Source: a phage. Taken from it: DNA of 64,000 nt. This document shows, piece after piece, positions 38,451 to 62,600 of the stretch (positions are counted from its first letter, which is position 1; every line of letters begins with the position of its first letter). The DNA lies in NCBI GenBank assembly GCA_014686905.1, contig GCA_014686905.1_4093.1, one strand, 5' to 3'. The notes beneath the pieces are model-generated. The model did no database searches, was not told the DNA's origin, and saw only the letters and a program-made list of their open reading frames with translations. Both the position numbers and the translations under genes were made by a program.

Positions 38451-38515
38451 TAGTTTGACAATAGAAAGTAAACGAGTATAATACTTACATCAACCACTGA
38501 TAAGGAAACATTAAA

Positions 38516-38791
38516 ATGCGGATTCTACTGACAGCTAACGAAATCGAACAAGTACTGACTACTAACCTGGAAGACTGGAAACGTGAAGCAGATATCCAGG
38601 CGGTTCAACGGCTTAACGATGAGTTAACGCCGGATGACTTAAGCAAGATTGTAGATCCTCAATTCTACGAAGATATCCACGACACCGCGTTAAGCGTCGA
38701 GGATGTACTAGATAAGCACTACATTGATATTGATTTGCAGGTTTACGGTCGTAAAAACTTTATCACTATTCACGACATTTACAATAATTAA
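38516..38791 (+). CDS. hypothetical acidic protein
   Basis: SD AAGGAAAC; 91-aa ORF. Confidence 0.6.
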   Translation: MRILLTANEIEQVLTTNLEDWKREADIQAVQRLNDELTPDDLSKIVDPQFYEDIHDTALSVEDVLDKHYIDIDLQVYGRKNFITIHDIYNN

Positions 38792-38877
38792 GTATTGACA
38801 AAGTATCTTAGTACTGTATAATAGTTTACATCGAGAGGGGGAATGGTTCCCCTCCTAACAAAGAGAGAGAAATAAAA

Positions 38878-39060
38878 ATGGCTAAATGCACTATCTGTAA
38901 GAAAGAAATCGTATTAGTTCCAAGTGCCCGTGAACGTGCCGCTCGGTTCGGTGGCAAACCGTCAGACTATACAAAAATGTTTACTGTCCATGCAGCTTGC
39001 CAGGTAGCAAAACGTTCACAAGAAAGCGTAGAATTAATGCGTAAACTTTCCAAAAAATAA
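38878..39060 (+). CDS. hypothetical small basic protein
   Basis: TTGACA promoter, leader hairpin GAGGGGGAATGGTTCCCCTCC, SD AGAGAGAGA. Confidence 0.55.
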   Translation: MAKCTICKKEIVLVPSARERAARFGGKPSDYTKMFTVHAACQVAKRSQESVELMRKLSKK

Positions 39061-39148
39061 GTATTGACAAAGTATCTTAGTACTGTATAATAGTTTACAT
39101 CAAGTGAGGGGAAACGGTTCCCCTCCTAACAAAGAGAGAGAAATAAAA

Positions 39149-39472
39149 ATGGCTATGATCCTTGCCCAGAAAGTAGAACTGAAAATTGTAACCTCCTTTG
39201 ACATTAAAGTTAATCGGTGGACTGATTCACACGGCAATACTTACCACTCTTGCTACGTGTCTGCGTTAATTGGTGATCGTTGGGAAGACCTGGGACATGA
39301 AACCTTTACATACGGTTACGGCACACAAGGCGAATACACGGGCTTGGAGATCATTAAAGAAACCGTTATAGGTTTCAACCCGAAAGAAAAAGTTATTCAC
39401 CGCATCGAAAAAGAGATTAACAAAGAAATAACAGTTCGATACAACGATGTAAAACGTAAGAAAGACATGTAA
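39149..39472 (+). CDS. hypothetical protein; paralog of 32748-33071
   Basis: Start moved to MAMILAQK; shared RWTDSHGNTYHSC...TFTYGY...VKRKKD; promoter plus leader duplicated from the 38878 unit. Confidence 0.65.
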   Translation: MAMILAQKVELKIVTSFDIKVNRWTDSHGNTYHSCYVSALIGDRWEDLGHETFTYGYGTQGEYTGLEIIKETVIGFNPKEKVIHRIEKEINKEITVRYNDVKRKKDM

Positions 39473-39567
39473 TAGAATCCATTTAAAGTACTATTTGACA
39501 TTGCCCAGATAGTACTTTATAATAGACTCTAACTTGTAGTACTAACTCAACTAATAGGATGTATACC

Positions 39568-39963
39568 ATGATTACTAAATTCTACGCTACCCGTGAAGCT
39601 GCCCGTATTGTTGCACGCGAGGAAGGAGCAGCATTTAAAGACATGGGCAAAGATGCACCGAAAGGTCAACGCTGGGCCGTACAGTTCAAAGAAATCTCTG
39701 ATATCGTGAATTCACCGGAGCCAGTACTAACAGCAGCAGAACTAAAACGAGCGGATTTACTGGCGGCAGTACTTAACGCACAAGATGAATTTATCGCTGA
39801 TTCTGATATCAAAGTACAGACAAACCATACCGCTTGGACTCACGCGGATCACCTGGCAAACCTTAAGCGTCCAAGTGAACTGGTACGCAACCAGAAAGAG
39901 ATCCGACACGACCGTAAGGGTAATCGTGTAACAGTATACAGTAAACGCCGCCAGGTTATCTAA
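39568..39963 (+). CDS. hypothetical protein; paralog of 28151-28417
   Basis: MITKFYATREAARIV...DRKGNRVTVYSKRR. Confidence 0.6.
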   Translation: MITKFYATREAARIVAREEGAAFKDMGKDAPKGQRWAVQFKEISDIVNSPEPVLTAAELKRADLLAAVLNAQDEFIADSDIKVQTNHTAWTHADHLANLKRPSELVRNQKEIRHDRKGNRVTVYSKRRQVI

Positions 39964-39985
39964 TAACTTGCAGTACTAACAACAC

Positions 39986-40010
39986 GGCGGGATCAGTTCC
40001 CGCCTTTTTT
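39986..40010 (+). terminator. intrinsic terminator
   Basis: GGCGGGA-TCAGT-TCCCGCC followed by TTTTTT. Confidence 0.7.
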
Positions 40011-40025
40011 ATAGGATAAACTAAA

Positions 40026-40280
40026 ATGATTAAGGTACAACTATCTAAAGATAATATCTTGCGGGTACACTATAAAGCACCACAGAGAATCATCACAAAG
40101 GCCGTACAGCTTGCTAATGAGTTTATTAATGGTAACCTATTACCAAGGAAGTTAAGCAACGGAAAACTGCGTGTAATCGATGTAGACACTAACAACAGAA
40201 TAGTAATAGAGAACACAGGAAAGATAAACCTTTATGAACATCAACAATATAATAAGAAAATAAAACTAATATCACGTTGA
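40026..40280 (+). CDS. hypothetical protein
   Basis: 84-aa ORF; SD-like AGGATAAAC. Confidence 0.5.
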   Translation: MIKVQLSKDNILRVHYKAPQRIITKAVQLANEFINGNLLPRKLSNGKLRVIDVDTNNRIVIENTGKINLYEHQQYNKKIKLISR

Positions 40281-40333
40281 CAGTACTCAATTGTTTTAGT
40301 ATTATGTACACATACCAACACGGGAGAAACAAA

Positions 40334-40552
40334 ATGAAATTATCTAAAATCGAAAAGAAAACTATTGATGAAGCAGTTAAGCACGGTTATACCTTTCGTA
40401 ATGATTCACATTTTACCAATTTTCAACAAGGCCAAAGGACTATTAAAAAACTAATTGACAAAGGTTTATTAGTTAAAGTAGATAACGGTAACGGCATTGA
40501 GTATCAGCCAACCCAAGACGCATTATCTTTAAAGAAATATGCAATTATCTAA
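40334..40552 (+). CDS. hypothetical protein
   Basis: Start moved to MKLSKIEKK after SD GGGAGAAAC; promoter TTGACAGTACTCAATTGTTTTAGTATTATGTACA duplicated before next gene. Confidence 0.5.
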   Translation: MKLSKIEKKTIDEAVKHGYTFRNDSHFTNFQQGQRTIKKLIDKGLLVKVDNGNGIEYQPTQDALSLKKYAII

Positions 40553-40609
40553 TTGACAGTACTCAAATGTTTTAGTACTATATGTACATACCAACACGGG
40601 GGAAACAAA

Positions 40610-40852
40610 ATGATTACTTTAGAAAAACGTATCAAAGAAACTACATCGCTGGTGGAACTGTTAACAGTACTGAAATGTAAAACAACACCATTCAGCACGC
40701 CGGACTTTATTAATATGGTTGATGTTAATGGTCGCTATCGTATCACGGTCGAACAAGGAGCGGCGAAAGTATTCAGTACTAAAAACACTAAGGAAGTGAT
40801 CCACGCCGTTAATGTTAAAAAAGTAGTTGCAATTGATAGTAAAGTACTGTAA
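40610..40852 (+). CDS. hypothetical protein
   Basis: Start moved to MITLEKRIKE after SD GGGGGAAAC; duplicated promoter block. Confidence 0.5.
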   Translation: MITLEKRIKETTSLVELLTVLKCKTTPFSTPDFINMVDVNGRYRITVEQGAAKVFSTKNTKEVIHAVNVKKVVAIDSKVL

Positions 40853-40883
40853 TATAGTTTCATTAACTCAAGGAGAACATGCA

Positions 40884-41468
40884 ATGCGTAATTATACTAA
40901 ATTCATCCGTACCCTGTCAGAAATGGAAACTAACAAAGAGATCCTTTCAGCTTGTCGGTTAGCTGGACTGGAGATCATCGGGGCGGGATCTTCCCGTATA
41001 GTTTTCGCTTTAAATGATCGGTTAGTGATTAAGGTCGCCAATTGTGATGCGGGTGTAGAACAAAATGAAACTGAATGTAAGGTATGGAATTTTTTAGACT
41101 ATGACCGCCCTCAATTGAAACAGTACTTTGCTAAAGTGCATATGCATTTAAGCGATCCTGATAATATGTTTATCGTTATGGATCGGTTGAGTACTGCAAG
41201 CAAAGGCAGTGTAAAGCACGTTAACGCGTGCAACGAATTAAAGTACAATATTAAACGTAATGCAATTGAACGCCAGCACCGCTTTGCTGATGCACTACAA
41301 CACGTTGATGATACACTGTCAACACTAACGATAAGAGATATCAGAAAACAGAATATCGGCCAGGATCGCAACGGCCTTATTAAAGTACTTGATTACGGTT
41401 TAACCCGCAATATCTGGAATCAGTACTATAAAAAGCGGGATGTAAAAGCCGTAACTATAACACGATAA
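40884..41468 (+). CDS. minimal protein-kinase-like protein
   Basis: Gly-rich loop IIGAGSSRIVF, VIKVA (VAIK-like Lys), catalytic-loop-like RDIRKQN, DFG-like DYG, in kinase order. Confidence 0.55.
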   Translation: MRNYTKFIRTLSEMETNKEILSACRLAGLEIIGAGSSRIVFALNDRLVIKVANCDAGVEQNETECKVWNFLDYDRPQLKQYFAKVHMHLSDPDNMFIVMDRLSTASKGSVKHVNACNELKYNIKRNAIERQHRFADALQHVDDTLSTLTIRDIRKQNIGQDRNGLIKVLDYGLTRNIWNQYYKKRDVKAVTITR

Positions 41469-41479
41469 AAAAGATTAAA

Positions 41480-41517
41480 AAAGGGATTGACTTCGGTCAG
41501 TCCCTTTGCTATTATAT
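41480..41517 (+). terminator. composite hairpin terminator plus promoter
   Basis: GGGATTGAC-TTCG-GTCAGTCCC, TTTGC, TATTAT. Confidence 0.55.
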
Positions 41518-41691
41518 ATTCATTGAGAGATAGCTCACTGACCCACAGGGTGCATAAATGTATCTATTATATAAGTATTCAGTACTGAAAACTATTTTTA
41601 AAAAAGTACTTGCATTGTACTTAGAATCAAGTATAATGTTTTATATCGAGAGGGGGAAATGGTTCTCCCTCAAAGAATAAGGAATAAAATC

Positions 41692-41913
41692 ATGACTACA
41701 ATGACTTGCATTTACGCTTCCAATCTTCTGAATGATGCGGCCTTTAATGTTGATTCAGAATATCAATGTTATCGGGATGAAAATAAAAAAGTTTTTGTAG
41801 TTGATAATAATGGTTTCCATATTGAATTACAATCCGGTTTCACTGGTGTTGATGGTAAATCAGTATGGGGCGTACAGGATGATAACGGTACATATCATTT
41901 TAAACGTAATTAA
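41692..41913 (+). CDS. hypothetical early protein
   Basis: Start moved to MTTMTCIYAS after SD AAGGAA; leader hairpin AGGGGGAAATGGTTCTCCCT. Confidence 0.55.
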   Translation: MTTMTCIYASNLLNDAAFNVDSEYQCYRDENKKVFVVDNNGFHIELQSGFTGVDGKSVWGVQDDNGTYHFKRN

Positions 41914-41997
41914 GTATTGACAAAGTATCTTAGTACTGTATAATAGTTTACATCAAGGGGAGAATAGTTCTCCCCGATACTAAAAGGAAACAAAATT

Positions 41998-42270
41998 ATG
42001 TCCAGCTACTCCGCTACTATGATCATTAAAGATATGAACGGTAATCCTACTTCTGCTGGTGGATCATTTGGAAACATTAATTTAGATGGTCGGTTATCCA
42101 TGCAATCAGCCATCGATGCAGCGAAAGAAGTTTTTAAGAATGAATGTACTGTTAGTAAGCTGGATTATATGGGATTCGCTATCGAGAAAACTAATCGTTT
42201 TGTGAACTACAAAAATCCACTGATGATTGATACTAACCTGAAAGCTAACGAAGTGGGGTACTTATTATGA
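41998..42270 (+). CDS. hypothetical early protein
   Basis: TTGACA promoter, leader hairpin GGGGAGAATAGTTCTCCCC, SD AAGGAAAC. Confidence 0.6.
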   Translation: MSSYSATMIIKDMNGNPTSAGGSFGNINLDGRLSMQSAIDAAKEVFKNECTVSKLDYMGFAIEKTNRFVNYKNPLMIDTNLKANEVGYLL

Positions 42271-42458
42271 CAGTAGAAGAAGTTAAAAAAGTACTGGCAG
42301 TACTACGCTATCATAATCATTGCAAGGTGAAGAATGATCCTGATTATGTTGATTCATCCCTGGAGGAAGACACATTAAACGCAATAAGCCATATGCAAAC
42401 ATTAGCAAAGCGTATGACCGAAAAGAATAGACCGGACTATATCGGAAATAAAATTTAA
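42267..42458 (+). CDS. hypothetical small protein
   Basis: ATGA overlap with upstream gene. Confidence 0.5.
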   Translation: MTVEEVKKVLAVLRYHNHCKVKNDPDYVDSSLEEDTLNAISHMQTLAKRMTEKNRPDYIGNKI

Positions 42459-42544
42459 AAAGTACTTGCATTGTAGTTAGATTAACGTATAATGTTTTAC
42501 ATAGAGCGGGGGAATAGTTCTCCCGCCAGTCCAGGAGATACACC

Positions 42545-42808
42545 ATGAACACTATCGAAATCACTATCAATGCACACGTATACGACAACGTAGTACTGCA
42601 AACTACTATGACCGCTAATGATACCAGTACTTTGCGGAATACTGTTATTAGTGCCGTATGTGCCGCTATCGGTGATGTCGCCCTGGAAAATGCAGAACAC
42701 ATCAACGACGGTTTCACTATGTGCAAACGTGATAACGCAAAACATATCATCGTAGAAGGTTACGGCGGTGTAGAATATAATCTTTATATGAAAAAAGTAC
42801 TTGCATAA
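42545..42808 (+). CDS. hypothetical early protein
   Basis: Promoter, leader hairpin GCGGGGGAATAGTTCTCCCGCC, SD AGGAGA. Confidence 0.6.
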   Translation: MNTIEITINAHVYDNVVLQTTMTANDTSTLRNTVISAVCAAIGDVALENAEHINDGFTMCKRDNAKHIIVEGYGGVEYNLYMKKVLA

Positions 42809-42875
42809 TAACTAAAACAAAGTATAATGTTTTGCATAGGGGGAGATATCCTCCCCCACTAAAAGGAGTAATAAA

Positions 42876-43100
42876 ATGGCTAACTTTGATGAACTGATGC
42901 GGGAAGTAGCTAACCTGGCAGAAGAGAAAAAATCATTCGATTCTATCTATAACACCGCTCACCGTGATTCAGTACTGGCATGTACTCAGGATCAAAAAGA
43001 TGAACTAATCGCCACATATCATGAAGCATGGAAGTACTACCGCCAATGGGAGAAAGAAGAAAGCGAGTCTACCATCAACGGCATCAATAATCTAATCTAA
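42876..43100 (+). CDS. hypothetical early protein
   Basis: Promoter, leader hairpin GGGGGAGATATCCTCCCCC, SD AAGGAG. Confidence 0.6.
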   Translation: MANFDELMREVANLAEEKKSFDSIYNTAHRDSVLACTQDQKDELIATYHEAWKYYRQWEKEESESTINGINNLI

Positions 43101-43113
43101 AAGTTTTATTTCA

Positions 43114-43150
43114 GTACTATTGACATAGCTTGATAGTACTGATGTAATAA
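43114..43150 (+). promoter_or_regulatory. promoter module class 2 with flanking inverted repeat, copy 3 of 3
   Basis: AGTACTATTGACATAGCTTGATAGTACTGATGTAATAAC. Confidence 0.55.
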
Positions 43151-43176
43151 CTTTACTAACTACAAGGGGAAACATA

Positions 43177-43434
43177 ATGGAACAGTTCACACAATATCGG
43201 GTAAATCCTCAAGCTATGGCCTACGTAGAAGACCATAAAACGTTACCAGTACTAACACCAATTAAAGGCCATATCTATCGTGCAATGTCATGGAATACGG
43301 CCCAGGATGGATATACTACCGCTGGCGTGGGTATGTATTGCGGGAATGGTGAATGGTTTGATCCAAATAATCCGGTAGCCATTGACAGTACTGAAAAAAT
43401 GAAATGGGCCGACTACATCGAAGATATTTCATAA
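43177..43434 (+). CDS. hypothetical early protein
   Basis: SD AAGGGGAAAC; 85-aa ORF. Confidence 0.55.
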   Translation: MEQFTQYRVNPQAMAYVEDHKTLPVLTPIKGHIYRAMSWNTAQDGYTTAGVGMYCGNGEWFDPNNPVAIDSTEKMKWADYIEDIS

Positions 43435-43523
43435 AACTATTTGACAGTACTAACCAGTAATGTATAATGTTTTACATAGAGCGGGGGAATAGTTCTCCCG
43501 CCAATAGTTTGGAGTAAAACATT

Positions 43524-43724
43524 ATGTCTATCGCTATCGCCCTGGTTGAAGTACTGAAAGAAGCTAAAGCCAACCTTATCGATGTACAGATTAAGGAATT
43601 GCAAAATGGTTTAATCGGCTGTACTTGTACCGCTGGTGGAGCGGCAGACTATCGGGAATTCGAATCACTTGAATCGATGGTCCGTTATCTTACCATGATC
43701 GTAGAAGATTGGAGAATCATCTAA
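43524..43724 (+). CDS. hypothetical small protein
   Basis: Promoter, leader hairpin, SD GGAG. Confidence 0.55.
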   Translation: MSIAIALVEVLKEAKANLIDVQIKELQNGLIGCTCTAGGAADYREFESLESMVRYLTMIVEDWRII

Positions 43725-43737
43725 CAAAAAAGAATAA

Positions 43738-43777
43738 AAAAAGGGATTGACTCCGGTCAGTCCCTTTGCTATTATAT
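43738..43777 (+). terminator. composite hairpin terminator plus promoter
   Basis: GGGATTGAC-TCCG-GTCAGTCCC, TTTGC, TATTAT. Confidence 0.55.
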
Positions 43778-43969
43778 ACGCATAGACAAAAACTAGCCCA
43801 CTGGGTGCAGGAGTGTATCTAAAATATATAGTTAATAACGGTGAGTAACTATCTGCTGGTGGGGTGAAAACTATTAATAAAAAAGTATTGACAAAGTATA
43901 TCAGTACTGCAATAATGTATCTCGTAGGGCGGCAATGGTGCGACGGCCCACAAAGTTAGGAGATTCAAA

Positions 43970-44302
43970 ATGAGTACTTCAATCGCTATCGTTAAAGCTT
44001 TCATCCGTACCAATGTTTCATCTGTATTCATCGACGGTCTGGATCGGGAAGTAGAATACTCAATCATTATCGCACAGACTGCAAACGGTGCTCGGTATAT
44101 CCTTAATGATAGTGAAGCAAATCACTACTACTTCACTAAAGCCACTGGCTTTAAACGCATCGATGCTGATGTAGTATACGCTAAGATGAATAAGCTGGTA
44201 GACAAGATTAACGCGAAAGGTACTATCGATTTACAGTACTGGAACGAAACCTATCCAGAATATGGATCTCACCGTTACCTGAATCCAGGTATTAAAATGT
44301 AA
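43970..44302 (+). CDS. hypothetical early protein
   Basis: TTGACA promoter; SD AGGAGA. Confidence 0.6.
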   Translation: MSTSIAIVKAFIRTNVSSVFIDGLDREVEYSIIIAQTANGARYILNDSEANHYYFTKATGFKRIDADVVYAKMNKLVDKINAKGTIDLQYWNETYPEYGSHRYLNPGIKM

Positions 44303-44391
44303 AAAGTACTTGCATAGTACTTAGAATCAAGTATAATGTTTTACATAGAGAGGGGGAAATGGTTCTCCCTCCTAAATTAAGGAGTTTTATC

Positions 44392-44793
44392 ATGACCTTC
44401 TCAATCAATTCCTTCGCTGACGTTTTAGTACTGGCTCGGACTTTTGGTAAAGATGCACTGGAGTACGCTGTAAGTAATGGTACTATCCAACCGGAACAGT
44501 GCCGCATCATTGGAAACTGCAAACGTTGGGCGGTATCCAATACTATTGCACTGGAAAACTTCCACGATGGCAACAATGAATATTCTGTTGATGTAGTATT
44601 CGAAGCCGTTGATCTCGGCGGTATCTATAATACTAACCTGAATGATGTGCGTATCGTTCGCACGGGGTTCGGTGCTTATGATGTATCTATCCGTGAAGCT
44701 ATGGACACCGGATACATTAGCAAGGACTTACTTGCTCACATCATGCAGCTGTGTACGGAACGTAACGAAGCACGCACTATCTTAGGACTGTAA
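44392..44793 (+). CDS. hypothetical early protein
   Basis: Start moved to MTFSINSFADV after SD AAGGAG; promoter and leader hairpin duplicated from the 41692 unit. Confidence 0.6.
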   Translation: MTFSINSFADVLVLARTFGKDALEYAVSNGTIQPEQCRIIGNCKRWAVSNTIALENFHDGNNEYSVDVVFEAVDLGGIYNTNLNDVRIVRTGFGAYDVSIREAMDTGYISKDLLAHIMQLCTERNEARTILGL

Positions 44794-44817
44794 GCGTTAC
44801 ACATCACCAAACATCAT

Positions 44818-44840
44818 AGGCCGCCTTGTAGCGGCCTTAA
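44818..44840 (+). terminator. terminator-like hairpin
   Basis: AGGCCGC-CTTGTA-GCGGCCT; no clear T tract. Confidence 0.4.
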
Positions 44841-44861
44841 CTATATCAGGAGTACATACAC

Positions 44862-45071
44862 ATGATCTATACAGTATACAGCGTTCTAGGCACTATTGCA
44901 GGCGTACATGATAACGTCGATAGTGCTATGCGTACAGTACTGCAACAGGTTCCACTAAAGCCTAAGACCATTAAGCAGATGACAGCACGACTAACCAGGG
45001 CGACCGATGGCGTGGAAGTATGGCAGGACTACGGGGATACACAGATAATCGTTAGCGTAACGAAGGATTAA
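44862..45071 (+). CDS. hypothetical small protein
   Basis: SD AGGAG upstream; 69-aa ORF. Confidence 0.5.
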   Translation: MIYTVYSVLGTIAGVHDNVDSAMRTVLQQVPLKPKTIKQMTARLTRATDGVEVWQDYGDTQIIVSVTKD

Positions 45072-45098
45072 TGCGTAAAGGGATCTAGTACTGATTCA

Positions 45099-45166
45099 GA
45101 AAAAAGTCAAGGCGTTTTTAAAATTATGCGTTAAAAAAATGCATAGGTAATCCCTTGACTTTTTTG
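45099..45166. repeat. long inverted repeat (GAAAAAAGTCAAGG ... CCTTGACTTTTTTG) at boundary between early region and family-2 array
   Basis: 14-bp arms separated by about 40 bp; flanked by repeated AATGCGTA(A/G)GGG. Confidence 0.5.
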
Positions 45167-45320
45167 AAATAAAAGGGATTGGACTATGGCAAAATGCGTA
45201 GGGGGCTAAAGGGCGGGTAACCTTAGCGACTTCGATAAAGGGGTATTACGAATAAAATGTTATTGACTTTTTATATGAATCGTATAAAATATGATCGATA
45301 ATAATTTTAAGGGAGTCCCT

Positions 45321-45518
45321 ATGCGTATTTTAACTAAAGAACAGCACCACGAAAGACTTATCAATAACATGGCTATGATAATGTATAAGTCCCATGACCG
45401 TGGTATTGCCTATAAGCGTGAATTAATTATGGCACTATTCATTGGAACTAACTTTCAGGAAAGGTATGTCAACGATTGGATTTGGTATTTAATTGAAGAT
45501 ATAACGAGTAAACTATGA
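45321..45518 (+). CDS. family-2 small paralog (LGTNYQ motif), first of array
   Basis: Start set to MRILTKEQ after SD AAGGGAG; promoter-like TTGACT...TATAAAAT upstream; motif FIGTNFQERYV. Confidence 0.55.
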   Translation: MRILTKEQHHERLINNMAMIMYKSHDRGIAYKRELIMALFIGTNFQERYVNDWIWYLIEDITSKL

Positions 45519-45715
45519 AAATGCGTATTTTAAATAAAGAAGAATATCAATCACTGTTACGTAAAAACTTCACAAAGATTTATAATACAGACACACACGT
45601 AGAACGAATGGAGTTATACCTTTTGATTACATTGGGAACAAACTATCAGGGTAGATGGGTGTGGCAATATATGGATACATTGAAAAATAAAATATTGTCC
45701 ACGAGGAAACAATGA
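45515..45715 (+). CDS. family-2 small paralog
   Basis: ATGA overlap; motif LGTNYQGRWV. Confidence 0.55.
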   Translation: MKMRILNKEEYQSLLRKNFTKIYNTDTHVERMELYLLITLGTNYQGRWVWQYMDTLKNKILSTRKQ

Positions 45716-45921
45716 AAACTATAACACGAACCCAATCATACGGTCTTATCTTGAAATACATGGACTTAATGGTGGATATCAGCAAAGACCTGCCTAAAAC
45801 TGAAATTGAAGTTGCAAGAGCAGAGATCCGCATGTTGGCTGTACTGAACACAAACCATCAGGAAGATTATGTTGAAGAATGGATTCGATTTTTAATTCAA
45901 GATATAAAGAGTAAATTATGA
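45712..45921 (+). CDS. family-2 small paralog
   Basis: ATGA overlap; motif LNTNHQEDYV. Confidence 0.55.
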   Translation: MKTITRTQSYGLILKYMDLMVDISKDLPKTEIEVARAEIRMLAVLNTNHQEDYVEEWIRFLIQDIKSKL

Positions 45922-46133
45922 TTATTATAGAAAACTCATATCAATATACTGAACGCATCGCTGCCAGACAACTTGAAATCCTCATAATATACGAAGAGAC
46001 TTCTGATTTAAACTTAGCCGAGGTATTGGAAAATGAAATACTTTTGGGTGCATTCTTGGGAACAGACTATCAGGAGTATTATGAGGAAAAGTATTTGTCA
46101 TCTCTTGAGAAATACATCAGGAGTAAATTATGA
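45918..46133 (+). CDS. family-2 small paralog
   Basis: ATGA overlap; motif LGTDYQEYY. Confidence 0.55.
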   Translation: MIIIENSYQYTERIAARQLEILIIYEETSDLNLAEVLENEILLGAFLGTDYQEYYEEKYLSSLEKYIRSKL

Positions 46134-46342
46134 TTATATTAACACCTGAAGAATATAAGAAACGTTTTAATTCTGTCCAGACTGAAATATTACTTATATA
46201 CCTTTCAAATGCAGACCTTAACTTATCAAGGGCAATGGAGAAGGATTTACTTATGGGTGCATTTTTGGATACAGACTTTCAGGTGTATTATGTAGGGGAA
46301 TACTTAATTGCACTCCAGAATTACATTAGGAGTAAACTATGA
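46130..46342 (+). CDS. family-2 small paralog
   Basis: ATGA overlap; motif LDTDFQVYYV. Confidence 0.55.
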   Translation: MIILTPEEYKKRFNSVQTEILLIYLSNADLNLSRAMEKDLLMGAFLDTDFQVYYVGEYLIALQNYIRSKL

Positions 46343-46566
46343 AACATTTAAGTAATATTGAGAAGATGAGAATTATCATTGATGCATTAAACAAATACGA
46401 TACCCTTTTACAAATAAAAGGTTTAACTCGATTGGAACACAAGATAAACACCACCGATGTACGCATGTTGGCTGTACTGGGGACGAACTTTCAGGAAGAG
46501 TATGTTGTTGCACACATAGTTGCACTCACTAATTACATAATGGACAAATGTAATGAACATCATTAA
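46339..46566 (+). CDS. family-2 small paralog
   Basis: ATGA overlap; motif LGTNFQEEYV. Confidence 0.55.
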   Translation: MKHLSNIEKMRIIIDALNKYDTLLQIKGLTRLEHKINTTDVRMLAVLGTNFQEEYVVAHIVALTNYIMDKCNEHH

Positions 46567-46777
46567 TAACTTTGAATACGAGGCCCGTGCTAAGAGTGCC
46601 AGAAAAAAAGAGAACACCATTTACTTCACTATGATGTACTTACAATGGACTGAAATTGAAGAAAAGGTTGCTGAAGTTTGGATGTTGGAATTCATGGGGA
46701 CGCAGTATCAGAATAGGTTTGCGGGTGAGTATATCAATGTTCTTATGAAACAAATAGAAAGAAAGGAAAAGAACTAA
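46553..46777 (+). CDS. family-2 small paralog
   Basis: Motif MGTQYQNRF. Confidence 0.55.
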   Translation: MNIINNFEYEARAKSARKKENTIYFTMMYLQWTEIEEKVAEVWMLEFMGTQYQNRFAGEYINVLMKQIERKEKN

Positions 46778-46935
46778 TGGTTTTCATTAACATATCTGAC
46801 CAACTCGATACTAAACTAGAAGTCGAGCAGAGTGAGGGATGGATGCTGTACTTTCTTGGAACTTCTCATCAGAATTTTTATATCCATGAACACATAGTTG
46901 CACTCAAGAATTACATTATGGACAAATGCAAATGA
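46777..46935 (+). CDS. family-2 small paralog (52 aa, below track cutoff)
   Basis: Hand-translated; motif FLGTSHQNFY. Confidence 0.45.
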   Translation: MVFINISDQLDTKLEVEQSEGWMLYFLGTSHQNFYIHEHIVALKNYIMDKCK

Positions 46936-47189
46936 AATACTTAACACAAGATGAATATTCACTTAGAATTCGAAAGCTCACCCCAGAAGCAAGAGTAATC
47001 TACGATGACCCCACCCTTACATGGAACCAAATGCGAGCTAAAGTTAATGAGCTATGGTTGCTGTACTTTATGGGGACTCAATATCAAGATAAGTTTTGCA
47101 AAGAATTTGTCGATCAATTAATGAATGTTATACAGGATAAACTAGATGAATATTGGCTCGCAAAACATGAAGACTTTATCAGGAGTTGA
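46926..47189 (+). CDS. family-2 small paralog
   Basis: Motif MGTQYQDKF. Confidence 0.55.
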   Translation: MQMKYLTQDEYSLRIRKLTPEARVIYDDPTLTWNQMRAKVNELWLLYFMGTQYQDKFCKEFVDQLMNVIQDKLDEYWLAKHEDFIRS

Positions 47190-47418
47190 GTATCAAACTG
47201 CCCTCTTCTCTCTTATTAACACCCTTAGAAAAAACAATGCATTACATGGTGCACCTGAAGTGGATGTTATCAACGGTGATGTTTATCTTATGAAATTCAT
47301 TGGAACAAACTATCAAGATCTGTTCATTCAACGATACTTGGCATCATTAAGAAACCAAATCCAATATAAAACCCAGAGAGCCAAAAAAGAATGGAATAAA
47401 CAATGCGACAAAGACTAA
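47146..47418 (+). CDS. family-2 small paralog
   Basis: Motif IGTNYQDLF; start uncertain. Confidence 0.5.
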   Translation: MNIGSQNMKTLSGVEYQTALFSLINTLRKNNALHGAPEVDVINGDVYLMKFIGTNYQDLFIQRYLASLRNQIQYKTQRAKKEWNKQCDKD

Positions 47419-47651
47419 ATCACAAAATGTATTGTAAACTATTGCAGACACTGGCACAGAAACACTATGACACGGTATCTGAAATATTACCCTATGATAT
47501 CATGCGTTTACTTCACTGTGAGGCCGAGATGCTTGTACTGATGACAGGCACTGATAAAACAGCAATCGCCAGATCGATAGAGCAATATATTGATGCACAC
47601 TGCCAACACATGAGAACCGAAATCTGGAGGAAAGAGAATGATAATTCTTAA
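47403..47651 (+). CDS. family-2 small paralog (divergent motif MTGTDKT)
   Basis: Same size and position in array; weaker motif. Confidence 0.45.
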   Translation: MRQRLNHKMYCKLLQTLAQKHYDTVSEILPYDIMRLLHCEAEMLVLMTGTDKTAIARSIEQYIDAHCQHMRTEIWRKENDNS

Positions 47652-47853
47652 TGAGTATCAGTATCATTGGAGGTTACAAACTATCAAATCAAAAGTGTAT
47701 AGTATTGTGTTAAACAAATCTATTGCACAAGAGGACAAATGTGTTATAATAGCTGAAATGAAGTTGGGTGTATTCGTAGGGACAAACTATCAAAACATCT
47801 ACACTGACGTATTATTAAGTTCCTTACGTAACAAGGTGGTATCCAAAATATGA
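47638..47853 (+). CDS. family-2 small paralog
   Basis: Motif VGTNYQNIY. Confidence 0.55.
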   Translation: MIILNEYQYHWRLQTIKSKVYSIVLNKSIAQEDKCVIIAEMKLGVFVGTNYQNIYTDVLLSSLRNKVVSKI

Positions 47854-48068
47854 GAAATTTACAAGGCTTTGAATACATCAGACTCCTGAAAACATGTGGA
47901 AGCAGAAGGAGAATGATATCAAGCGATAAGAGCATCCAAGCTAACCTTAAGCACGCACTAGTAACTGAACTCTATGTAGGTGCACTCTTAGGCACAAACT
48001 ATCAACAAATGTATGTAGATCTATGGATTGACGCTCTACAGAAAGAGGTTAAAAGTAAATGCAAATGA
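47850..48068 (+). CDS. family-2 small paralog
   Basis: Motif LGTNYQQMYV. Confidence 0.55.
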   Translation: MRNLQGFEYIRLLKTCGSRRRMISSDKSIQANLKHALVTELYVGALLGTNYQQMYVDLWIDALQKEVKSKCK

Positions 48069-48277
48069 TTAATTTAAGTAAAGACGAATTTTATGTTATA
48101 CTGGCGAAAACTTATCCAGCACGTAAGGCCGTTTATGATAGTCACATTATTGAACCCTCAAAGAAGTTGATTTTAGTAAATGAGATAAAGATGCTTTCAG
48201 TCTTAGGAACAAACTATCAAGAGAATGCTGTACTGATGTTAATTGATGCCCTCCAGCGAGAGGTTAAACGTAAATGA
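48059..48277 (+). CDS. family-2 small paralog
   Basis: Motif LGTNYQENAV. Confidence 0.55.
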   Translation: MQMINLSKDEFYVILAKTYPARKAVYDSHIIEPSKKLILVNEIKMLSVLGTNYQENAVLMLIDALQREVKRK

Positions 48278-48504
48278 AAATGATTCATTTAACTTACCAT
48301 GAATATCAAAAACGTTTAAATGCATCCAGAGATATAAGGATTCAAATATTCAATAACAAAAGATTGAAGCCTGATATCAGAAAAATCAAAATTATAGAAG
48401 CAGAGTTATGCAACTTTCTAGGGACCAACTATCAGGCAGGTAAGGTAAAAAACTATCTTAGAGAACTAATGAATAGTATTGAAAATAAATGTAAGGGTAA
48501 TTAA
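48274..48504 (+). CDS. family-2 small paralog
   Basis: Motif LGTNYQAGKV. Confidence 0.55.
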   Translation: MKMIHLTYHEYQKRLNASRDIRIQIFNNKRLKPDIRKIKIIEAELCNFLGTNYQAGKVKNYLRELMNSIENKCKGN

Positions 48505-48745
48505 CATGAAAATGATTAAATTATCTCAAGCAAAATATAAAGAACGCCTGGTGAAAATTGCACCTGGACTTAATGAAATCCATCACGGAGAAGTCATTAA
48601 ACACGGAAATAAGATGATTAAGAAACTTGAGTTAAAGGTGGGTGCATTCATAGGAACAAACTATCAGGAGTATTATGTAGATGAATACATAATCGCACTT
48701 AAGAGATACATTGGAAGAAAACTATATCTACAAACTAAAGAATAG
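48479..48745 (+). CDS. family-2 small paralog
   Basis: Motif IGTNYQEYYV; true start probably an internal ATG near 48506. Confidence 0.5.
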   Translation: MKINVRVINMKMIKLSQAKYKERLVKIAPGLNEIHHGEVIKHGNKMIKKLELKVGAFIGTNYQEYYVDEYIIALKRYIGRKLYLQTKE

Positions 48746-48747
48746 TA

Positions 48748-49038
48748 TTGAAAATAAATGTGAGGTTGATGAACATGCAAATGATCAATTTAAGTAAAGA
48801 TGAATATACCGAGCGTATGACAAAAATTACGCACAAACGTAATACAATCTATCACAACCCAGAAATTCAACACAGTAAGAAAATGATTATGATGCGTGAG
48901 TTAAAGATGGGTGTATTCTTAGGAACAAACTATCAAGATACAGAAGTAAATCGCTTAATCGCGGAGTTACTACTGGAAATCAGAGGTAAGCTGTACTTTC
49001 ATCAAATGACCCAACCACTGAGGTGTACTAAGAAATGA
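48748..49038 (+). CDS. family-2 small paralog
   Basis: Motif LGTNYQDTEV; true start probably internal. Confidence 0.5.
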   Translation: MKINVRLMNMQMINLSKDEYTERMTKITHKRNTIYHNPEIQHSKKMIMMRELKMGVFLGTNYQDTEVNRLIAELLLEIRGKLYFHQMTQPLRCTKK

Positions 49039-49250
49039 TCAACATCACATTGCAAGAAAGATTCATCCGAATCAACTATGCAATTACCAAATTAGATGCT
49101 ACTATAGGATTCCAAAGTCTACCATACAAAACCAGATTGTTATTAGAGTGTGAAGCTAAGTTGGGTGTACTGTTAGGGACGCAACACCAACAACGATATG
49201 TGGAAATCTGGATTGACCTTTTAACCCAAAATATATATGAGAGAATGTAA
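49035..49250 (+). CDS. family-2 small paralog
   Basis: Motif LGTQHQQRYV. Confidence 0.55.
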   Translation: MINITLQERFIRINYAITKLDATIGFQSLPYKTRLLLECEAKLGVLLGTQHQQRYVEIWIDLLTQNIYERM

Positions 49251-49481
49251 ATGCAAAATGAAATGATATACTTAACGAATGAAGAATTTCAAGAGAAGAT
49301 GTTAAAAACCAAAAACATTACTCTTAAGTTCGTTCCAAATCAATCAATATCTGAAGTATCTGCAAATGTATTGTTTCAGAAGCTACCATACGTTCTTGGA
49401 ACTGATAAACAAGAATTTATGGTTCAAAATATGATTGAACATCTTATAATGAGTATTAAGGAAAAAGTTAATGCAAAATGA
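49251..49481 (+). CDS. family-2 small paralog
   Basis: Motif LGTDKQEFMV. Confidence 0.55.
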   Translation: MQNEMIYLTNEEFQEKMLKTKNITLKFVPNQSISEVSANVLFQKLPYVLGTDKQEFMVQNMIEHLIMSIKEKVNAK

Positions 49482-49725
49482 AATGATATACTTAACCTAT
49501 AATGAATACGTCGAGAGATTAGTTCGTGCCAAGAGATATACCAATAAACGTCCAATTGACCTAAACCAAACCCCAGCAGAAAGGAGTGCAGAAGTATTAT
49601 TCCAATCACTACCATATCTTCTGGGAACTGATAGACAAGAGGAATATGTTGCACGTATGATTAGATATCTTAAAATCACTATTAAGGAAAAAGTAAATGC
49701 AAATGAAATACTTAACAGACGATGA
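49471..49725 (+). CDS. family-2 small paralog
   Basis: Motif LGTDRQEEYV; N-terminus MQNEMIYLT duplicated from previous gene. Confidence 0.55.
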   Translation: MQNEMIYLTYNEYVERLVRAKRYTNKRPIDLNQTPAERSAEVLFQSLPYLLGTDRQEEYVARMIRYLKITIKEKVNANEILNRR

Positions 49726-49948
49726 GTTAAAAGAACGACTAATTAAATCAAGAAAACATACAAATCAACTTCCAAACGACACAAACAAGTCTCCAGCGGA
49801 AAGGAGTGCAGAAGTTTTATACATTCAACTCATGTACTTTCTTGGCACTGACAGACAAGAGTATTACATTGAAAGTATGCTTCGATATCTTAAATTCTCT
49901 ATAAAGGAAAAGATACATGATCAAGTATTTAAAAATCCTAACAGTTAA
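49697..49948 (+). CDS. family-2 small paralog
   Basis: Motif LGTDRQEYYI. Confidence 0.55.
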   Translation: MQMKYLTDDELKERLIKSRKHTNQLPNDTNKSPAERSAEVLYIQLMYFLGTDRQEYYIESMLRYLKFSIKEKIHDQVFKNPNS

Positions 49949-50159
49949 TGAATATCATAAGATTGTAATGAAAACTAATAGTGATTACGCTAAAAAATCA
50001 AACCCAAAGTACATACTGGAACACACATTTGAAGAACGTCAATTAGCTTTAGTTGAAGCAAAACTTCTTGCACTATTAGGAACAAACTATCAGGAAGAAT
50101 ACAATAGAAAACTAATATACCTTTTAACTAAACATATAAGAAAAAGAAAAAATGCATGA
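49917..50159 (+). CDS. family-2 small paralog
   Basis: Motif LGTNYQEEYN. Confidence 0.55.
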   Translation: MIKYLKILTVNEYHKIVMKTNSDYAKKSNPKYILEHTFEERQLALVEAKLLALLGTNYQEEYNRKLIYLLTKHIRKRKNA

Positions 50160-50386
50160 AACACTTGACAGATGATGAACATGGGCTTATAGTAATGGAT
50201 GTAATCAACATCGAATACAAAAAGTTGATACGCTATCGTTGTTATGAAGATAAGCAACTCGTTCTAGCAGAACAGAAGTTGTTTCGACTCTTAAACACAA
50301 ACTACCAAGCACAATACGAAGAATCGTATATGTACCTTTTGGCGAGGAAAGCAAAAAGAGATTATGAAAATTTTAAGCAAAGGTGA
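50156..50386 (+). CDS. family-2 small paralog
   Basis: Motif LNTNYQAQYEE. Confidence 0.55.
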   Translation: MKHLTDDEHGLIVMDVINIEYKKLIRYRCYEDKQLVLAEQKLFRLLNTNYQAQYEESYMYLLARKAKRDYENFKQR

Positions 50387-50585
50387 TTCAGTAATATTAC
50401 TTATAGAGAGTTCAAGTAAATTCTTAAACATAACACTGTCTGATATAGATGAAGATGACAAAGAAGTACTGAGAGCAGATTTAAGAGTACTGTTACATAT
50501 CGGAACAAACCTACAAGAAGAATATGTAGAGTGCTACATCAATGAACTTAAAGAATCAGTACTGAGAAAATGCAAATGCAAATGA
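50364..50585 (+). CDS. family-2 small paralog
   Basis: Motif IGTNLQEEYV. Confidence 0.55.
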   Translation: MKILSKGDSVILLIESSSKFLNITLSDIDEDDKEVLRADLRVLLHIGTNLQEEYVECYINELKESVLRKCKCK

Positions 50586-50803
50586 AAATCATTACCGATG
50601 TAGAATACCTAACAATCATAAATGGACTGTTTTTGAAGCTCTTCGTCATTAACACATCAGATATACCAGATATGGATAAAATTATTAAGAGAAATGAAGT
50701 CTATGTTCTAGCTACCCTTGGAACGAACTATCAAGAACACGACATTAAAGATTATATTAATACACTTAAACGAGCTATTGAACTAAAATGCCAAAACCAC
50801 TAG
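50570..50803 (+). CDS. family-2 small paralog
   Basis: Motif LGTNYQEHDI. Confidence 0.55.
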   Translation: MQMQMKIITDVEYLTIINGLFLKLFVINTSDIPDMDKIIKRNEVYVLATLGTNYQEHDIKDYINTLKRAIELKCQNH

Positions 50804-51003
50804 GAACAGCAGAATACATTGAACTCATGGGATTACACTTCTCATCCTTTCAGAAACTTATGCGAGAATCAAAGAATGATTTAGAATATACCATCAGAGG
50901 TTCCGATTTAAGAATGCTTCTCACCCTAGACACAGATTCCCAAGAGCGATTTGTCAATGAGCATATTAGAGCACTTTTAATGGAAATTAAAAGTAAACTA
51001 TGA
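50788..51003 (+). CDS. family-2 small paralog
   Basis: Motif LDTDSQERFV. Confidence 0.55.
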   Translation: MPKPLGTAEYIELMGLHFSSFQKLMRESKNDLEYTIRGSDLRMLLTLDTDSQERFVNEHIRALLMEIKSKL

Positions 51004-51215
51004 AGATAATATCAAACCAAGAGTACTTGGCACTATTCAGGAAGAATAATCACAAATATATGGCACTTGATTCAAGAACTGATATAAGTGAACTTGAAAA
51101 AAATCTTTTGCGTTCAGATATGATAGTACTGACACTCTTAGGAACACAGCATCAAGAGAGAACTGTTAATTCACACATAGGTATTCTTATACAGATTGTA
51201 CAGGAAAAGATATGA
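51000..51215 (+). CDS. family-2 small paralog
   Basis: Motif LGTQHQERTV. Confidence 0.55.
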   Translation: MKIISNQEYLALFRKNNHKYMALDSRTDISELEKNLLRSDMIVLTLLGTQHQERTVNSHIGILIQIVQEKI

Positions 51216-51433
51216 GAATCATATCACAACAAGATATTCTTAAGTTCACAAGGGTTCATGCATCTGAATTTGATGCTATATTATCAAAAAGTTACAATGA
51301 CCCTTATACACAAGATGTACATTACAGTGAATTATGGATGTATATACTTTTAGGTACAAATAAGCAAGAGCAAGCCGTACAGAAGTATTTGACAGCTTTA
51401 CGTGATGCTACAGCTAATGGAGTATGTGTTTAA
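51212..51433 (+). CDS. family-2 small paralog
   Basis: Motif LGTNKQEQAV. Confidence 0.55.
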   Translation: MRIISQQDILKFTRVHASEFDAILSKSYNDPYTQDVHYSELWMYILLGTNKQEQAVQKYLTALRDATANGVCV

Positions 51434-51677
51434 TATGAAAGTACTGACAGAACTAGAAATGTATCATAGATTTAATAAGTACTATCATTTACTTAAGCCT
51501 ATACAGAGGATTAAATGTCCATTTGAAGAGAAACAGGTTTTAATCTATGAGCACAAGTTCTTTGTATCATTAGGTACAGATCAACAAGAGTACTATTTGA
51601 CGTTGTACTTGATTACATTAATAGATTTAATTCACTATAAAACCAAACAAGCTAATAAAGAGAAATATGAAAACTAA
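51402..51677 (+). CDS. family-2 small paralog
   Basis: Motif LGTDQQEYYL. Confidence 0.55.
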   Translation: MMLQLMEYVFNMKVLTELEMYHRFNKYYHLLKPIQRIKCPFEEKQVLIYEHKFFVSLGTDQQEYYLTLYLITLIDLIHYKTKQANKEKYEN

Positions 51678-52011
51678 TATACAACTCAAGGTATATAAAT
51701 CATTTGAACATACATATATCAAAAGTAGTCTATGTAGAGATGTAATGGATTACAAGGGTAAGCCATTCACAATTACCTATGATTCTTATGTTAGTGATTT
51801 ATATATATCATTTGTTAATTACGAAAATAAAATATACAAGCACGTTGATATTAAAGATTTAAGTACTTTATCACCAGAGGAATACTTTCAGGAATCATTA
51901 GTATGGGATTTAGAGTTTCCTATGCCATTAGTACATAAGATGATAGTACTAATGAAAGAATCTAAACAGGAGCCTAATGGTGATTATGAAGAACACACAG
52001 TTGAGTATTAA
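51667..52011 (+). CDS. family-3 paralog (EEYFQxSLVxD motif)
   Basis: Motif SPEEYFQESLVWDLEFPMPLV. Confidence 0.55.
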   Translation: MKTNIQLKVYKSFEHTYIKSSLCRDVMDYKGKPFTITYDSYVSDLYISFVNYENKIYKHVDIKDLSTLSPEEYFQESLVWDLEFPMPLVHKMIVLMKESKQEPNGDYEEHTVEY

Positions 52012-52381
52012 AAGTACTGATAATACTAAGAGTTATACAAGCTCAAGTACTGTGACAATCGAAGTGAATTCTATTAATGCTGGTAATGCAGTAGATAAGT
52101 TCTTTATTGCTCAAGGGTACAGGAAAGATATTCATCAATATTGTTCAGTATATGGGGAGTACAATAGTACTGAAGATATAATTTATTGGTCAACACATCA
52201 AGATTATATAACTAAAATTGGCGTTCCAGATGTTAGTACTTTATCTGAAGAAGAATACTTTCAGTACAGCTTAGTACATGATGTACCTATACCTTTAGGG
52301 TTAATCAAGGGTATGCAGGAAGAGGTTCATAAGCTTAAATCCATGAGTTCAGGTACTTTCATTAGAACAGTGCAATACTAG
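51977..52381 (+). CDS. family-3 paralog
   Basis: Motif SEEEYFQYSLVHDVPIPLG. Confidence 0.55.
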   Translation: MVIMKNTQLSIKSTDNTKSYTSSSTVTIEVNSINAGNAVDKFFIAQGYRKDIHQYCSVYGEYNSTEDIIYWSTHQDYITKIGVPDVSTLSEEEYFQYSLVHDVPIPLGLIKGMQEEVHKLKSMSSGTFIRTVQY

Positions 52382-52440
52382 CTTGACAGTACTTTTCATT
52401 ACTGATATAGTACACTAACGTTAATCATAGGGTAAAAATT

Positions 52441-52686
52441 ATGTTAAATTTTTTAAATTTCCTTATCGTTTTGTGTATTGTTCTTGGGATTGCACCATTT
52501 GTATTGTATTTCATGGATTCAGATGAAATGCAGAAGATGAATTGCACAAGGACAGGACAGAGTAGAGAAGAGACGATTCTTATGCCTGTTACGGTTATTG
52601 TTAACAACATGCCCATTACAAACATGGTCCCTACCCTAACGACAACGTACCAGTACTCTTGTGCTGACGGTGAGAGGTGGAGATGA
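52441..52686 (+). CDS. small membrane protein
   Basis: N-terminal hydrophobic helix; promoter-like TTGACA...TATAGT at about 52383-52412. Confidence 0.5.
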   Translation: MLNFLNFLIVLCIVLGIAPFVLYFMDSDEMQKMNCTRTGQSREETILMPVTVIVNNMPITNMVPTLTTTYQYSCADGERWR

Positions 52687-53003
52687 AATTTAATATAGCA
52701 AAAACATCGAGTATATGTATTTTTGGTTATGCTGATGAGTTAGGTGATATTGACATTCTTTTGTACAAAAAGGATGGTGTTATGCATTTCAAGTACCAGG
52801 ATGAAGAGGCAGACAATTATCCTTTACCTAATTTAGTACAAATGCAGGAAGATGAATTATTCCAGTACAGCTTAGTATACGACATTGATATTTGCACGAT
52901 GCCAGTACTAATTAGTATTCAAAAAGTGATGCTCGATATGTATGATAAGCTAATACAAGGTACATCAGGGAGAATCATTGAAATCGATATACAAGACAAT
53001 TAA
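52677..53003 (+). CDS. family-3 paralog
   Basis: Motif EDELFQYSLVYDIDICTMPVL. Confidence 0.55.
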   Translation: MEMKFNIAKTSSICIFGYADELGDIDILLYKKDGVMHFKYQDEEADNYPLPNLVQMQEDELFQYSLVYDIDICTMPVLISIQKVMLDMYDKLIQGTSGRIIEIDIQDN

Positions 53004-53196
53004 TCAAGAATGGAAGACCCAAAAGTACAGGGAATTCAACAGGAATTTTACAAAAGATGCATTGAATTTAAAAACAACAGAGTTTGATATGTTTATTTTT
53101 CTTGGAACACGTTCACAAGAACAATTTGTTCATTATTATATAAATTCGTTGCGAACGGAGATAGTATGCAAAACACAGGGTATTATAAAAAGGTAA
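52978..53196 (+). CDS. family-2 small paralog (interleaved with family 3)
   Basis: Motif LGTRSQEQFV. Confidence 0.5.
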   Translation: MKSIYKTINQEWKTQKYREFNRNFTKDALNLKTTEFDMFIFLGTRSQEQFVHYYINSLRTEIVCKTQGIIKR

Positions 53197-53432
53197 ACCA
53201 ATATTTGTACGCTACAAAGTACAGGGATTTTTGTTTAAAGGGTGGTGATGAAGATTTTTCTTTGCGATTATCAGAATTTAATCTGTTATTTTATCTTGGT
53301 ACAAAAGAACAAGAAGAAATGGCACAGAAATTTATCAAGCACCTTTTACAAAAAATTAATATGCAAATTTTGATGCTTAAGTTACAGAATGAGATAAATG
53401 AATATGAATCCAGAAATAGTTCAGGATCTTAA
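53166..53432 (+). CDS. family-2 small paralog (interleaved with family 3)
   Basis: Motif LGTKEQEEMA. Confidence 0.5.
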   Translation: MQNTGYYKKVNQYLYATKYRDFCLKGGDEDFSLRLSEFNLLFYLGTKEQEEMAQKFIKHLLQKINMQILMLKLQNEINEYESRNSSGS

Positions 53433-62599: not shown

Positions 62600-62600
62600 A

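Follow-up and report, generated by a model that had tools for sequence, protein, structure and literature searches.

Genes and boundaries of the array

The window analyzed here is a whole stretch of 64,000 nucleotides (nt) of phage DNA (contig GCA_014686905.1_4093.1 of NCBI GenBank assembly GCA_014686905.1), and it carries 31 plus-strand open reading frames (ORFs) of 52-88 amino acids (aa) that share an LGT(N/D)xQ core. Twenty-nine of these ORFs lie contiguously at 45321-51677 and the remaining two at 52978-53432, the array accounting for ~2% of the genome. All 31 can be aligned over their whole length, with Thr49 invariant (31/31), Gln52 and Leu63 each present in 30 of the 31 sequences and Gly48 in 27. 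As a safeguard against circularity, a hidden Markov model (HMM) was built from the 16 odd-numbered members and applied to the 15 held-out ones. All 15 were found with scores of 34.6-68.8 bits (E values 9e-10 to 2e-20), compared with 7.9 bits for the best unrelated fragment in a six-frame translation of the window. The HMM search detected no further family member elsewhere in the 64 kb, and its sole extra match is an out-of-frame relic inside the array. The original prediction, made from the sequence alone, of about 31 abutting paralogs is borne out by these results.

Comparison with known genomes identifies the source phage as an Asteriusvirus jumbo coliphage; the members of this genus are jumbo myoviruses with genomes of ~350 kb. 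The region 45200-53500 matches Escherichia phages vB_EcoM_G17 (G17) and Sharanji over its full length at 97.7% identity, and phAPEC6, PBECO4, UE-S1, 121Q, ph0011, and other Asteriusvirus members at 84-95%. In the records of all annotated relatives, the genes under the array match are labeled "hypothetical protein". The members, together with the relic and the genes that close the contiguous block, are as follows [plus strand, (+); HMM scores and starts given where they bear on gene calling]:

45321-45518 (+), member 1: 65 aa; Shine-Dalgarno (SD) sequence AGGGAG; start as in G17; HMM 67 bits
45515-45715 (+), member 2: 66 aa
45712-45921 (+), member 3: 69 aa; also matches phrog_28039
45918-46133 (+), member 4: 71 aa; isoelectric point (pI) 4.3
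46130-46342 (+), member 5: 70 aa
46339-46566 (+), member 6: 75 aa
46553-46777 (+), member 7: 74 aa; missing in several relatives
46777-46935 (+), member 8: 52 aa; short at the N-terminus
46932-47189 (+), member 9: 85 aa; in a swapped allele cassette
47167-47418 (+), member 10: 83 aa; in the same swapped cassette
47403-47651 (+), member 11: 82 aa; 6-residue insertion in the core loop
47638-47853 (+), member 12: 71 aa
47850-48068 (+), member 13: 72 aa; representative modeled with AlphaFold
48059-48277 (+), member 14: 72 aa
48274-48504 (+), member 15: 76 aa
48506-48745 (+), member 16: 79 aa; start as annotated in G17; HMM 85 bits
48693-48794 (+), out-of-frame relic resembling the C-terminus of member 15: HMM 14.7 bits, positions 57-73; translation KLKNSIENKC...
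48775-49038 (+), member 17: 87 aa
49035-49250 (+), member 18: 71 aa
49251-49481 (+), member 19: 76 aa
49471-49725 (+), member 20: 84 aa
49697-49948 (+), member 21: 83 aa
49917-50159 (+), member 22: 80 aa
50156-50386 (+), member 23: 76 aa
50364-50585 (+), member 24: 73 aa
50576-50803 (+), member 25: 75 aa
50788-51003 (+), member 26: 71 aa
51000-51215 (+), member 27: 71 aa
51212-51433 (+), member 28: 73 aa
51435-51677 (+), member 29: 80 aa; ends the contiguous run
51667-52381 (+), pair of genes from another, unrelated family of paralogs (LSxEEYFQxSLVxD): in PHROGs the first gene matches phrog_13866 best; they close the gapless block
52978-53196 (+), member 30: 72 aa; TTG start after GGGAG; HMM 69 bits; unannotated in G17, gene 345 in 121Q
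53166-53432 (+), member 31: 88 aa; most divergent; HMM 63 bits

The genes are tightly packed, with 26 of the 30 junctions overlapping and the largest gap measuring 29 nt. The suggested coupling through overlapping stops and starts is thus supported, although its description as mostly ATGA was overstated, this overlap being found at 12 of the 30 junctions. The notion of a single 8-kb operon does not hold. The gapless block extends over only 7.06 kb (45321-52381) and contains the 29 family genes plus the two genes of the other family; it is followed by a 59-base-pair (bp) gap with a second promoter-like site, and the last two members belong to the next block. The start of the first gene at 45321 is correct (SD sequence AGGGAG, the same start as in G17), and the longer ORF start at 45291 abuts the -10 box of the upstream promoter match. 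For the two ORFs listed with TTG starts at 48479 and 48748, these starts are probably wrong, and the ATGs at 48506 and 48775 that are annotated in G17 are probably better choices.

An old, protein-coding multigene family

Amino-acid identity between the paralogs is low (median 24%, maximum 57%), and Tandem Repeats Finder reports no unit-length (~215 bp) DNA repeat between 45000 and 53600. The array is therefore not a nucleotide repeat artefact, and a recent "genomic accordion" amplification can be rejected since the copies are only ~24% identical. The paralogs agree at the three codon positions in 0.41/0.51/0.335 of cases, relative to 0.28/0.32/0.28 expected from composition, such that the third positions are near random. 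Moreover, the conserved residues are encoded in different ways: all four ACN codons are used for the invariant Thr, both codons for the Gln, and five Leu codons for Leu63. Seven phages, each with 24-31 near-full copies, have every reading frame intact. One further genome, CMSTMSU (MH494197), was left out of the comparisons; in this record, which is marked UNVERIFIED, the array is broken into ~40 partial frames, probably as a result of sequencing frameshifts rather than decay.

Concatenated comparisons of orthologs give ratios of nonsynonymous to synonymous divergence (dN/dS) of 0.34-0.39, with dS up to 0.42, which indicates selection on the proteins. The columns that are conserved among paralogs are also those most constrained among orthologs (Spearman 0.65, p 3e-10). 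In the most variable columns, the nonsynonymous value (pN) rises to 0.19, near but below the pooled synonymous value (pS) of 0.21, and some positions are under relaxed constraint. No alignment column in the ortholog comparison has pN above pS, and hence there is no evidence of positive selection. Conservation is accordingly found at the level of the protein and is not limited to the nucleotides, a limitation that the original prediction had named, together with a lack of translation evidence, as telling against it. Searches of the window identified no Rfam family and no transfer RNA, leaving a non-coding RNA reading unsupported. Collectively, these data establish the array as a genuine, old, protein-coding multigene family.

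Within Asteriusvirus, the array has 24-31 near-full copies (24 in 121Q) and its gene order is conserved across the genus, with lineage-specific losses of members 7, 8, 14, 16, and 19 and with four phages having one additional copy ahead of member 25. Identity between alleles ranges from 44% to 100% within a single pair of genomes. A local example is the swapped allele cassette of members 9-10 (46930-47420), where nucleotide identity to G17 drops to 78.8% as opposed to 98.9% elsewhere in the array. In the comparisons with PBECO4 and ph0011, both dN and dS of the array are higher than in the flanks, which likewise fits turnover of the copies. The relic between members 16 and 17 tells of another process. 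Approximately 75 nt of the 15/16 junction are repeated at the 16/17 junction, where the surrounding 91-nt alignment is 87% identical, and judging from this repeat the relic is a footprint of unequal crossing-over. In the Klebsiella phage RaK2 (Alcyoneusvirus), the same family, with the same core motif and on the same strand, is present among small hypothetical genes. RaK2 differs in having ~13 members that are scattered in groups of 1-3 over 18 kb, two of them fused to an extra C-terminal domain of ~50 aa; extensions of this type gave no Pfam match. Set against the few and scattered copies in RaK2, the long contiguous array represents the expansion, at the level of Asteriusvirus, of an older family. 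Since the copies are old and each has nevertheless been retained, a simple dosage amplification is unlikely.

The AlphaFold2 model of member 13, for which the 31 paralogs were the only alignment input, has a mean predicted local distance difference test (pLDDT) score of 97.9 and consists of four helices (residues 6-14, 17-25, 31-45, and 52-71). Residue 2 forms a bridge to Thr49 of the LGT motif. From this model we infer that the conserved LGT loop closes the fold and is not an active site. The divergent member 31 has a pLDDT of 86; its helix3-loop-helix4 half is kept at >90, while its N-terminal part is less certain. Independent BFVD models of other members superpose with template modeling (TM) scores of 0.75-0.92.

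No characterized relative of this fold emerged from the searches. A BFVD structure search returned the family's own members and no other viral protein at significance, Foldseek against PDB gave no significant solved structure (best E 3), and a profile search of PDB sequences reached E 1.5 at best. In Pfam-A, no family was matched by more than one member (best E 0.0035, all below the cut-off), and no helix-turn-helix fold or profile match was obtained for family members. Five members were scanned with PADLOC; four gave no match and member 31 gave two weak ones (E ~0.01). In PHROGs, 29 of the 31 members match phrog_4148 at E <= 1e-3 (best 2e-26) and two fall below the threshold. This entry, listed with function unknown, represents the same protein family and does not mention the tandem organization. 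The family-profile search that the original prediction had called for matched 94 clusters out of 1.84 billion representatives, all of them small proteins (52-122 aa) bar one spurious eukaryotic repeat protein of 1771 aa. Named matches, which came from a word-indexed search, are "hypothetical protein" entries from E. coli and Salmonella phages, phage-sized contigs, and metagenomes. The literature searched does not mention the array or the family.

The terminal repeat and promoter-like sites

Three further features place the array in the phage genome:

25644-45223 (+), direct terminal repeat (DTR), one copy, ~20 kb: from the ends of the G17 record mapped onto the window
45263-45290 (+), sigma-70-like promoter match TTGACT-16-TAAAAT: 10/12 agreement with the consensus; ahead of the array
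52383-52411 (+), second sigma-70-like site TTGACA-17-TATAGT with TG extension: in the sole sizeable gap (59 bp)

Position 1 of the G17 record corresponds to window position 45223 and its last base to 25644, and window positions 25644-45223 therefore represent one DTR copy. The annotated DTR of vB_Ec-M-J (1-21525) maps to the same right boundary, and repeats of ~21 kb have been confirmed experimentally in fEgEco12 (PMC13070987). With the repeat ending at 45223, the array, whose first gene starts at 45321, begins 98 bp past it; it adjoins the DTR and lies outside the terminal redundancy. Where a record begins with the physical terminus, the first family matches are met at ~21-23 kb. The order in the window is right unique end, one terminal-repeat copy, left unique end, and the source sequence therefore depicts a linear genome in circularly collapsed or concatemer-type form. 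The sign of the guanine-cytosine skew switches around position 26000, not far from the physical terminus (25644). Exactly at the other repeat boundary, within 45148-45225, lie a hairpin (AATCCCTT...AAGGGATT) and, after it, a G-rich stretch (GGGGGCTAAAGGGCGGGTAACC). Conservation of both elements extends to six related phages, and they could constitute a terminator or a terminus-processing signal.

The promoter match ahead of the array is conserved as TTGACT-16-TAAAAT in six relatives (G17, vB_Ec-M-J, 121Q, UE-S1, ph0011, and phAPEC6). PBECO4, where an insertion has altered the upstream sequence, has TTGACA-17-TATGAT in its place. The proposal of a promoter at this position thus gains from conservation, but a 10/12 match is not by itself distinctive, such matches not being enriched in the region. 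The second site is followed directly by a small ORF (52441-52686) whose product, to judge by its hydrophobic N-terminal helix (MLNFLNFLIVLCIVLGIAPFVLYF...), is the region's only apparent membrane protein.

The DTR has much stronger matches. Twelve sites on its plus strand match TTGACA-16/17-TATAAT perfectly, the majority lying tens of bp 5' of a small ORF, and they are accompanied by the recurrent variants TTGCAA-16-TATAAT (nine times) and TTGACT-17-TATTAT (four times). On the plus strand between 21500 and 64000, 41 of 61 strong matches are intergenic, although intergenic sequence makes up only 21% of the total (p 1e-14). Such a density of strong promoter matches is unusual, and the DTR has the appearance of an immediate-early region. 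In the related jumbo phage PA5oct, RNA sequencing showed that genes in the terminal repeat are highly transcribed early, and its promoters have TTGAC and TATAATA motifs (PMC7318152). From the adjacency to the DTR, the promoter matches, and the PA5oct data, we infer that host RNA polymerase would transcribe the array early in infection.

Functional readings and known systems

As discussed above, the family combines a common core with deep divergence. The original prediction raised the possibility of a diversified library of inhibitors or decoys against a host target. The sequence data are compatible with such a library because deep divergence is coupled to retention of individual members, their charge spans a wide range (pI 4.3-9.9, net charge from -8 to +9), local swapping of alleles occurs, the promoter is of an early type, and the terminal repeat is adjacent. 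The reading that we favor, tentatively, is that the array encodes an early, cytoplasmic, co-expressed, and diversified panel of small proteins that bind host factors, for takeover or counter-defence. In this scenario, host RNA polymerase would transcribe the block early in infection and the genes would be translated serially through coupling. Each helical bundle would keep its core, in which the N-terminal strand and the LGT(N/D)xQ loop close the fold, while presenting a different surface. Given the common core and the differing surfaces, the set is proposed to act as a panel of protein binders that might neutralize different host factors or divert them to other uses, be they targets of takeover or defences against phages. 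Further copies would arise from unequal crossing-over at gene junctions, and alleles would be exchanged between co-circulating phages.

Several observations weigh against this panel of binders. The Pfam, PADLOC, PDB profile, and Foldseek searches revealed no homology to a characterized inhibitor. The columns discussed above lack the signature of an arms race, and for a counter-defence locus the array is rather stable in its gene order and content. Its promoter is weaker (10/12) than those of the DTR. Serial coupling is expected to yield all members in similar amounts, as would be fitting for a complex no less than for a panel. In addition, the early timing and the translation of the array genes are predictions, and virion mass spectrometry can miss small proteins.

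The first alternative is that the array is a largely dispensable expansion, its copies having spread by unequal recombination under weak selection without acquiring distinct functions. The dN/dS of the array exceeds that of neighboring non-family genes (0.26-0.30). Recombination has left its footprint, 24 near-full copies are enough for 121Q, and the window holds four or more further tandem families. This group of jumbo phages is known to have genomes rich in paralogs (PMC3622015; PMC5259590), which make up ~10% of RaK2 gene products (PMC3622015). However, all 31 reading frames are intact in spite of a median identity of 24%, and the same order is kept in phages that have diverged to dS ~0.4. 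Constraint also follows the fold, and neutral copies would have decayed. We consider this explanation unlikely.

Matched amounts through translational coupling are also what would be expected if the paralogs were subunits of one hetero-oligomeric, non-virion assembly in the infected cell. The overlapping junctions, 12 of them ATGA, fit such an assembly, as do the single compact helical fold common to all members and the order and membership conserved across phages. Overlapping genes are, however, common in phage genomes whatever their function. Furthermore, an assembly with defined subunits is difficult to reconcile with a copy number of 24-31, with members that are lost or replaced by 44-70% identical alleles while their neighbors are kept, and with the ~13 scattered copies in RaK2. 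The probability that we attach to it is low.

A role as small nucleic-acid-binding regulators, which would tune phage or host expression with a sequence specificity for each member, is suggested by the basic character of 14 of the 31 members (pI >8.5) and by the promoter-dense early region that the array adjoins. This role is equally improbable: 10 members are acidic, the lowest having a pI of 4.3, and there is no Pfam DNA-binding family that more than one member matches.

Finally, the original prediction had offered abundant internal or scaffolding-like peptides as an alternative. The small size of the paralogs, their many copies, and the inner body visible in phAPEC6 capsids (PMC7247149) might suggest that they are packaged into virions as internal, scaffolding, or DNA-associated peptides, but this is very improbable. 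The phAPEC6 orthologues (gp462-gp489) are absent from the 62 proteins detected by mass spectrometry of purified virions, among which a protein of 4.66 kDa does appear. In RaK2, the structural proteins map to other genome clusters, and the homologues of the family carry no annotation beyond hypothetical. The type and position of the promoter also point to early and not to late expression.

Comparable arrangements are known from other viruses. The host-takeover module of Bacillus phage SPO1 is a cluster of 26 small early genes (PMC6873191). The likeness consists of many small genes at a terminal repeat, those of SPO1 shutting down host processes, and of the many strong host-type promoter matches (12 of them perfect) in the DTR beside the array. 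The SPO1 cluster is said, in the title of a 1998 paper by Stewart et al., to be situated in the terminal redundancy. The present array differs in lying just outside the repeat and in having one moderate promoter for 29 genes, and no homology between the two was detected; we know of no paralogy among the SPO1 module genes themselves. In the jumbo Bacillus phage G, a lineage-specific expansion of ~35 zinc-ribbon proteins, proposed to be transcription factors or DNA-binding proteins, has been described (PMC7824862). It is a comparably large expansion of one small protein in one jumbo phage genome, but the fold and the phage lineage are different and the array members, with 0-3 Cys, have no zinc ligands. 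Hence, paralog-rich jumbo genomes and the phage G expansion were already known, and what appears to be new, as judged from the literature searched, is this array with its uncharacterized fold.

Among large eukaryotic DNA viruses, the MGF110/360/505 families of African swine fever virus and the host-range families of poxviruses are tandem, diverged paralogs near the genome end that vary in copy number from isolate to isolate and act in host range and immune evasion. The resemblance is one of analogy only, the viruses and proteins being unrelated. The present locus shows tandem paralogs, copy-number variation, and fewer copies in the outgroup RaK2, as expected of a tandem lineage-specific multigene family. 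That it is a vertically maintained immune-evasion or takeover family, with ~30 diverged four-helix binders made together at the start of infection and each disabling a different target in host defence or housekeeping, is conceivable though somewhat doubtful.

Thus far, we have focused on the array itself. The window also contains other tandem families. On the minus strand, 6938-21072 holds a tandem array of 12-14 RCC1-like paralogs of ~390 aa, which relatives label "regulator of chromosome condensation" or "DNA condensation protein"; several of the latter are present in phAPEC6 virions. A second small-protein family, with 10 members of 60-81 aa that have N-terminal MHKEFY and C-terminal LIFRY, occupies the opposite unique end (21586-25380, plus strand), shortly ahead of the terminal repeat. 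Its kinship to the LGT(N/D)xQ family was rejected (hhalign probability 0.4%). The LSxEEYFQxSLVxD family has seven members at 51667-53003 and 60360-62119, three of which interrupt the main array; two scanned members match phrog_13866, and one weak PADLOC match to JAB was obtained (E 3.6e-4). Four more abutting paralogs of ~147-162 aa occupy 62129-63999, and the equivalent side of the RaK2 genome has 16 consecutive genes, ORF417-432, of ~165-210 aa according to the gene table. Upstream of the array of a related uncultured phage (metagenome contig ERZ15610127 NODE_65), a small gene (1511-1765) has a precomputed Pfam match to ParE_like.

Most genes of jumbo phages have no known function (83% in phAPEC6), and such phages are being developed for therapy. 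The array is kept copy by copy across the genus, at a place where phages usually put the genes that act first. In addition, the locus illustrates cleanly, in a natural setting, how a multigene family can be built and maintained in a phage, by unequal crossing-over at coupled junctions followed by the exchange of allele cassettes. If the members are indeed specific binders of host proteins, they would provide ~30 natural inhibitors on a common scaffold of 70 aa, which could be used to find new points of phage-host conflict and as a scaffold for protein engineering. The array would then be to its phage what the terminal multigene families are to large eukaryotic DNA viruses, with the difference of a fold that has no characterized relative.

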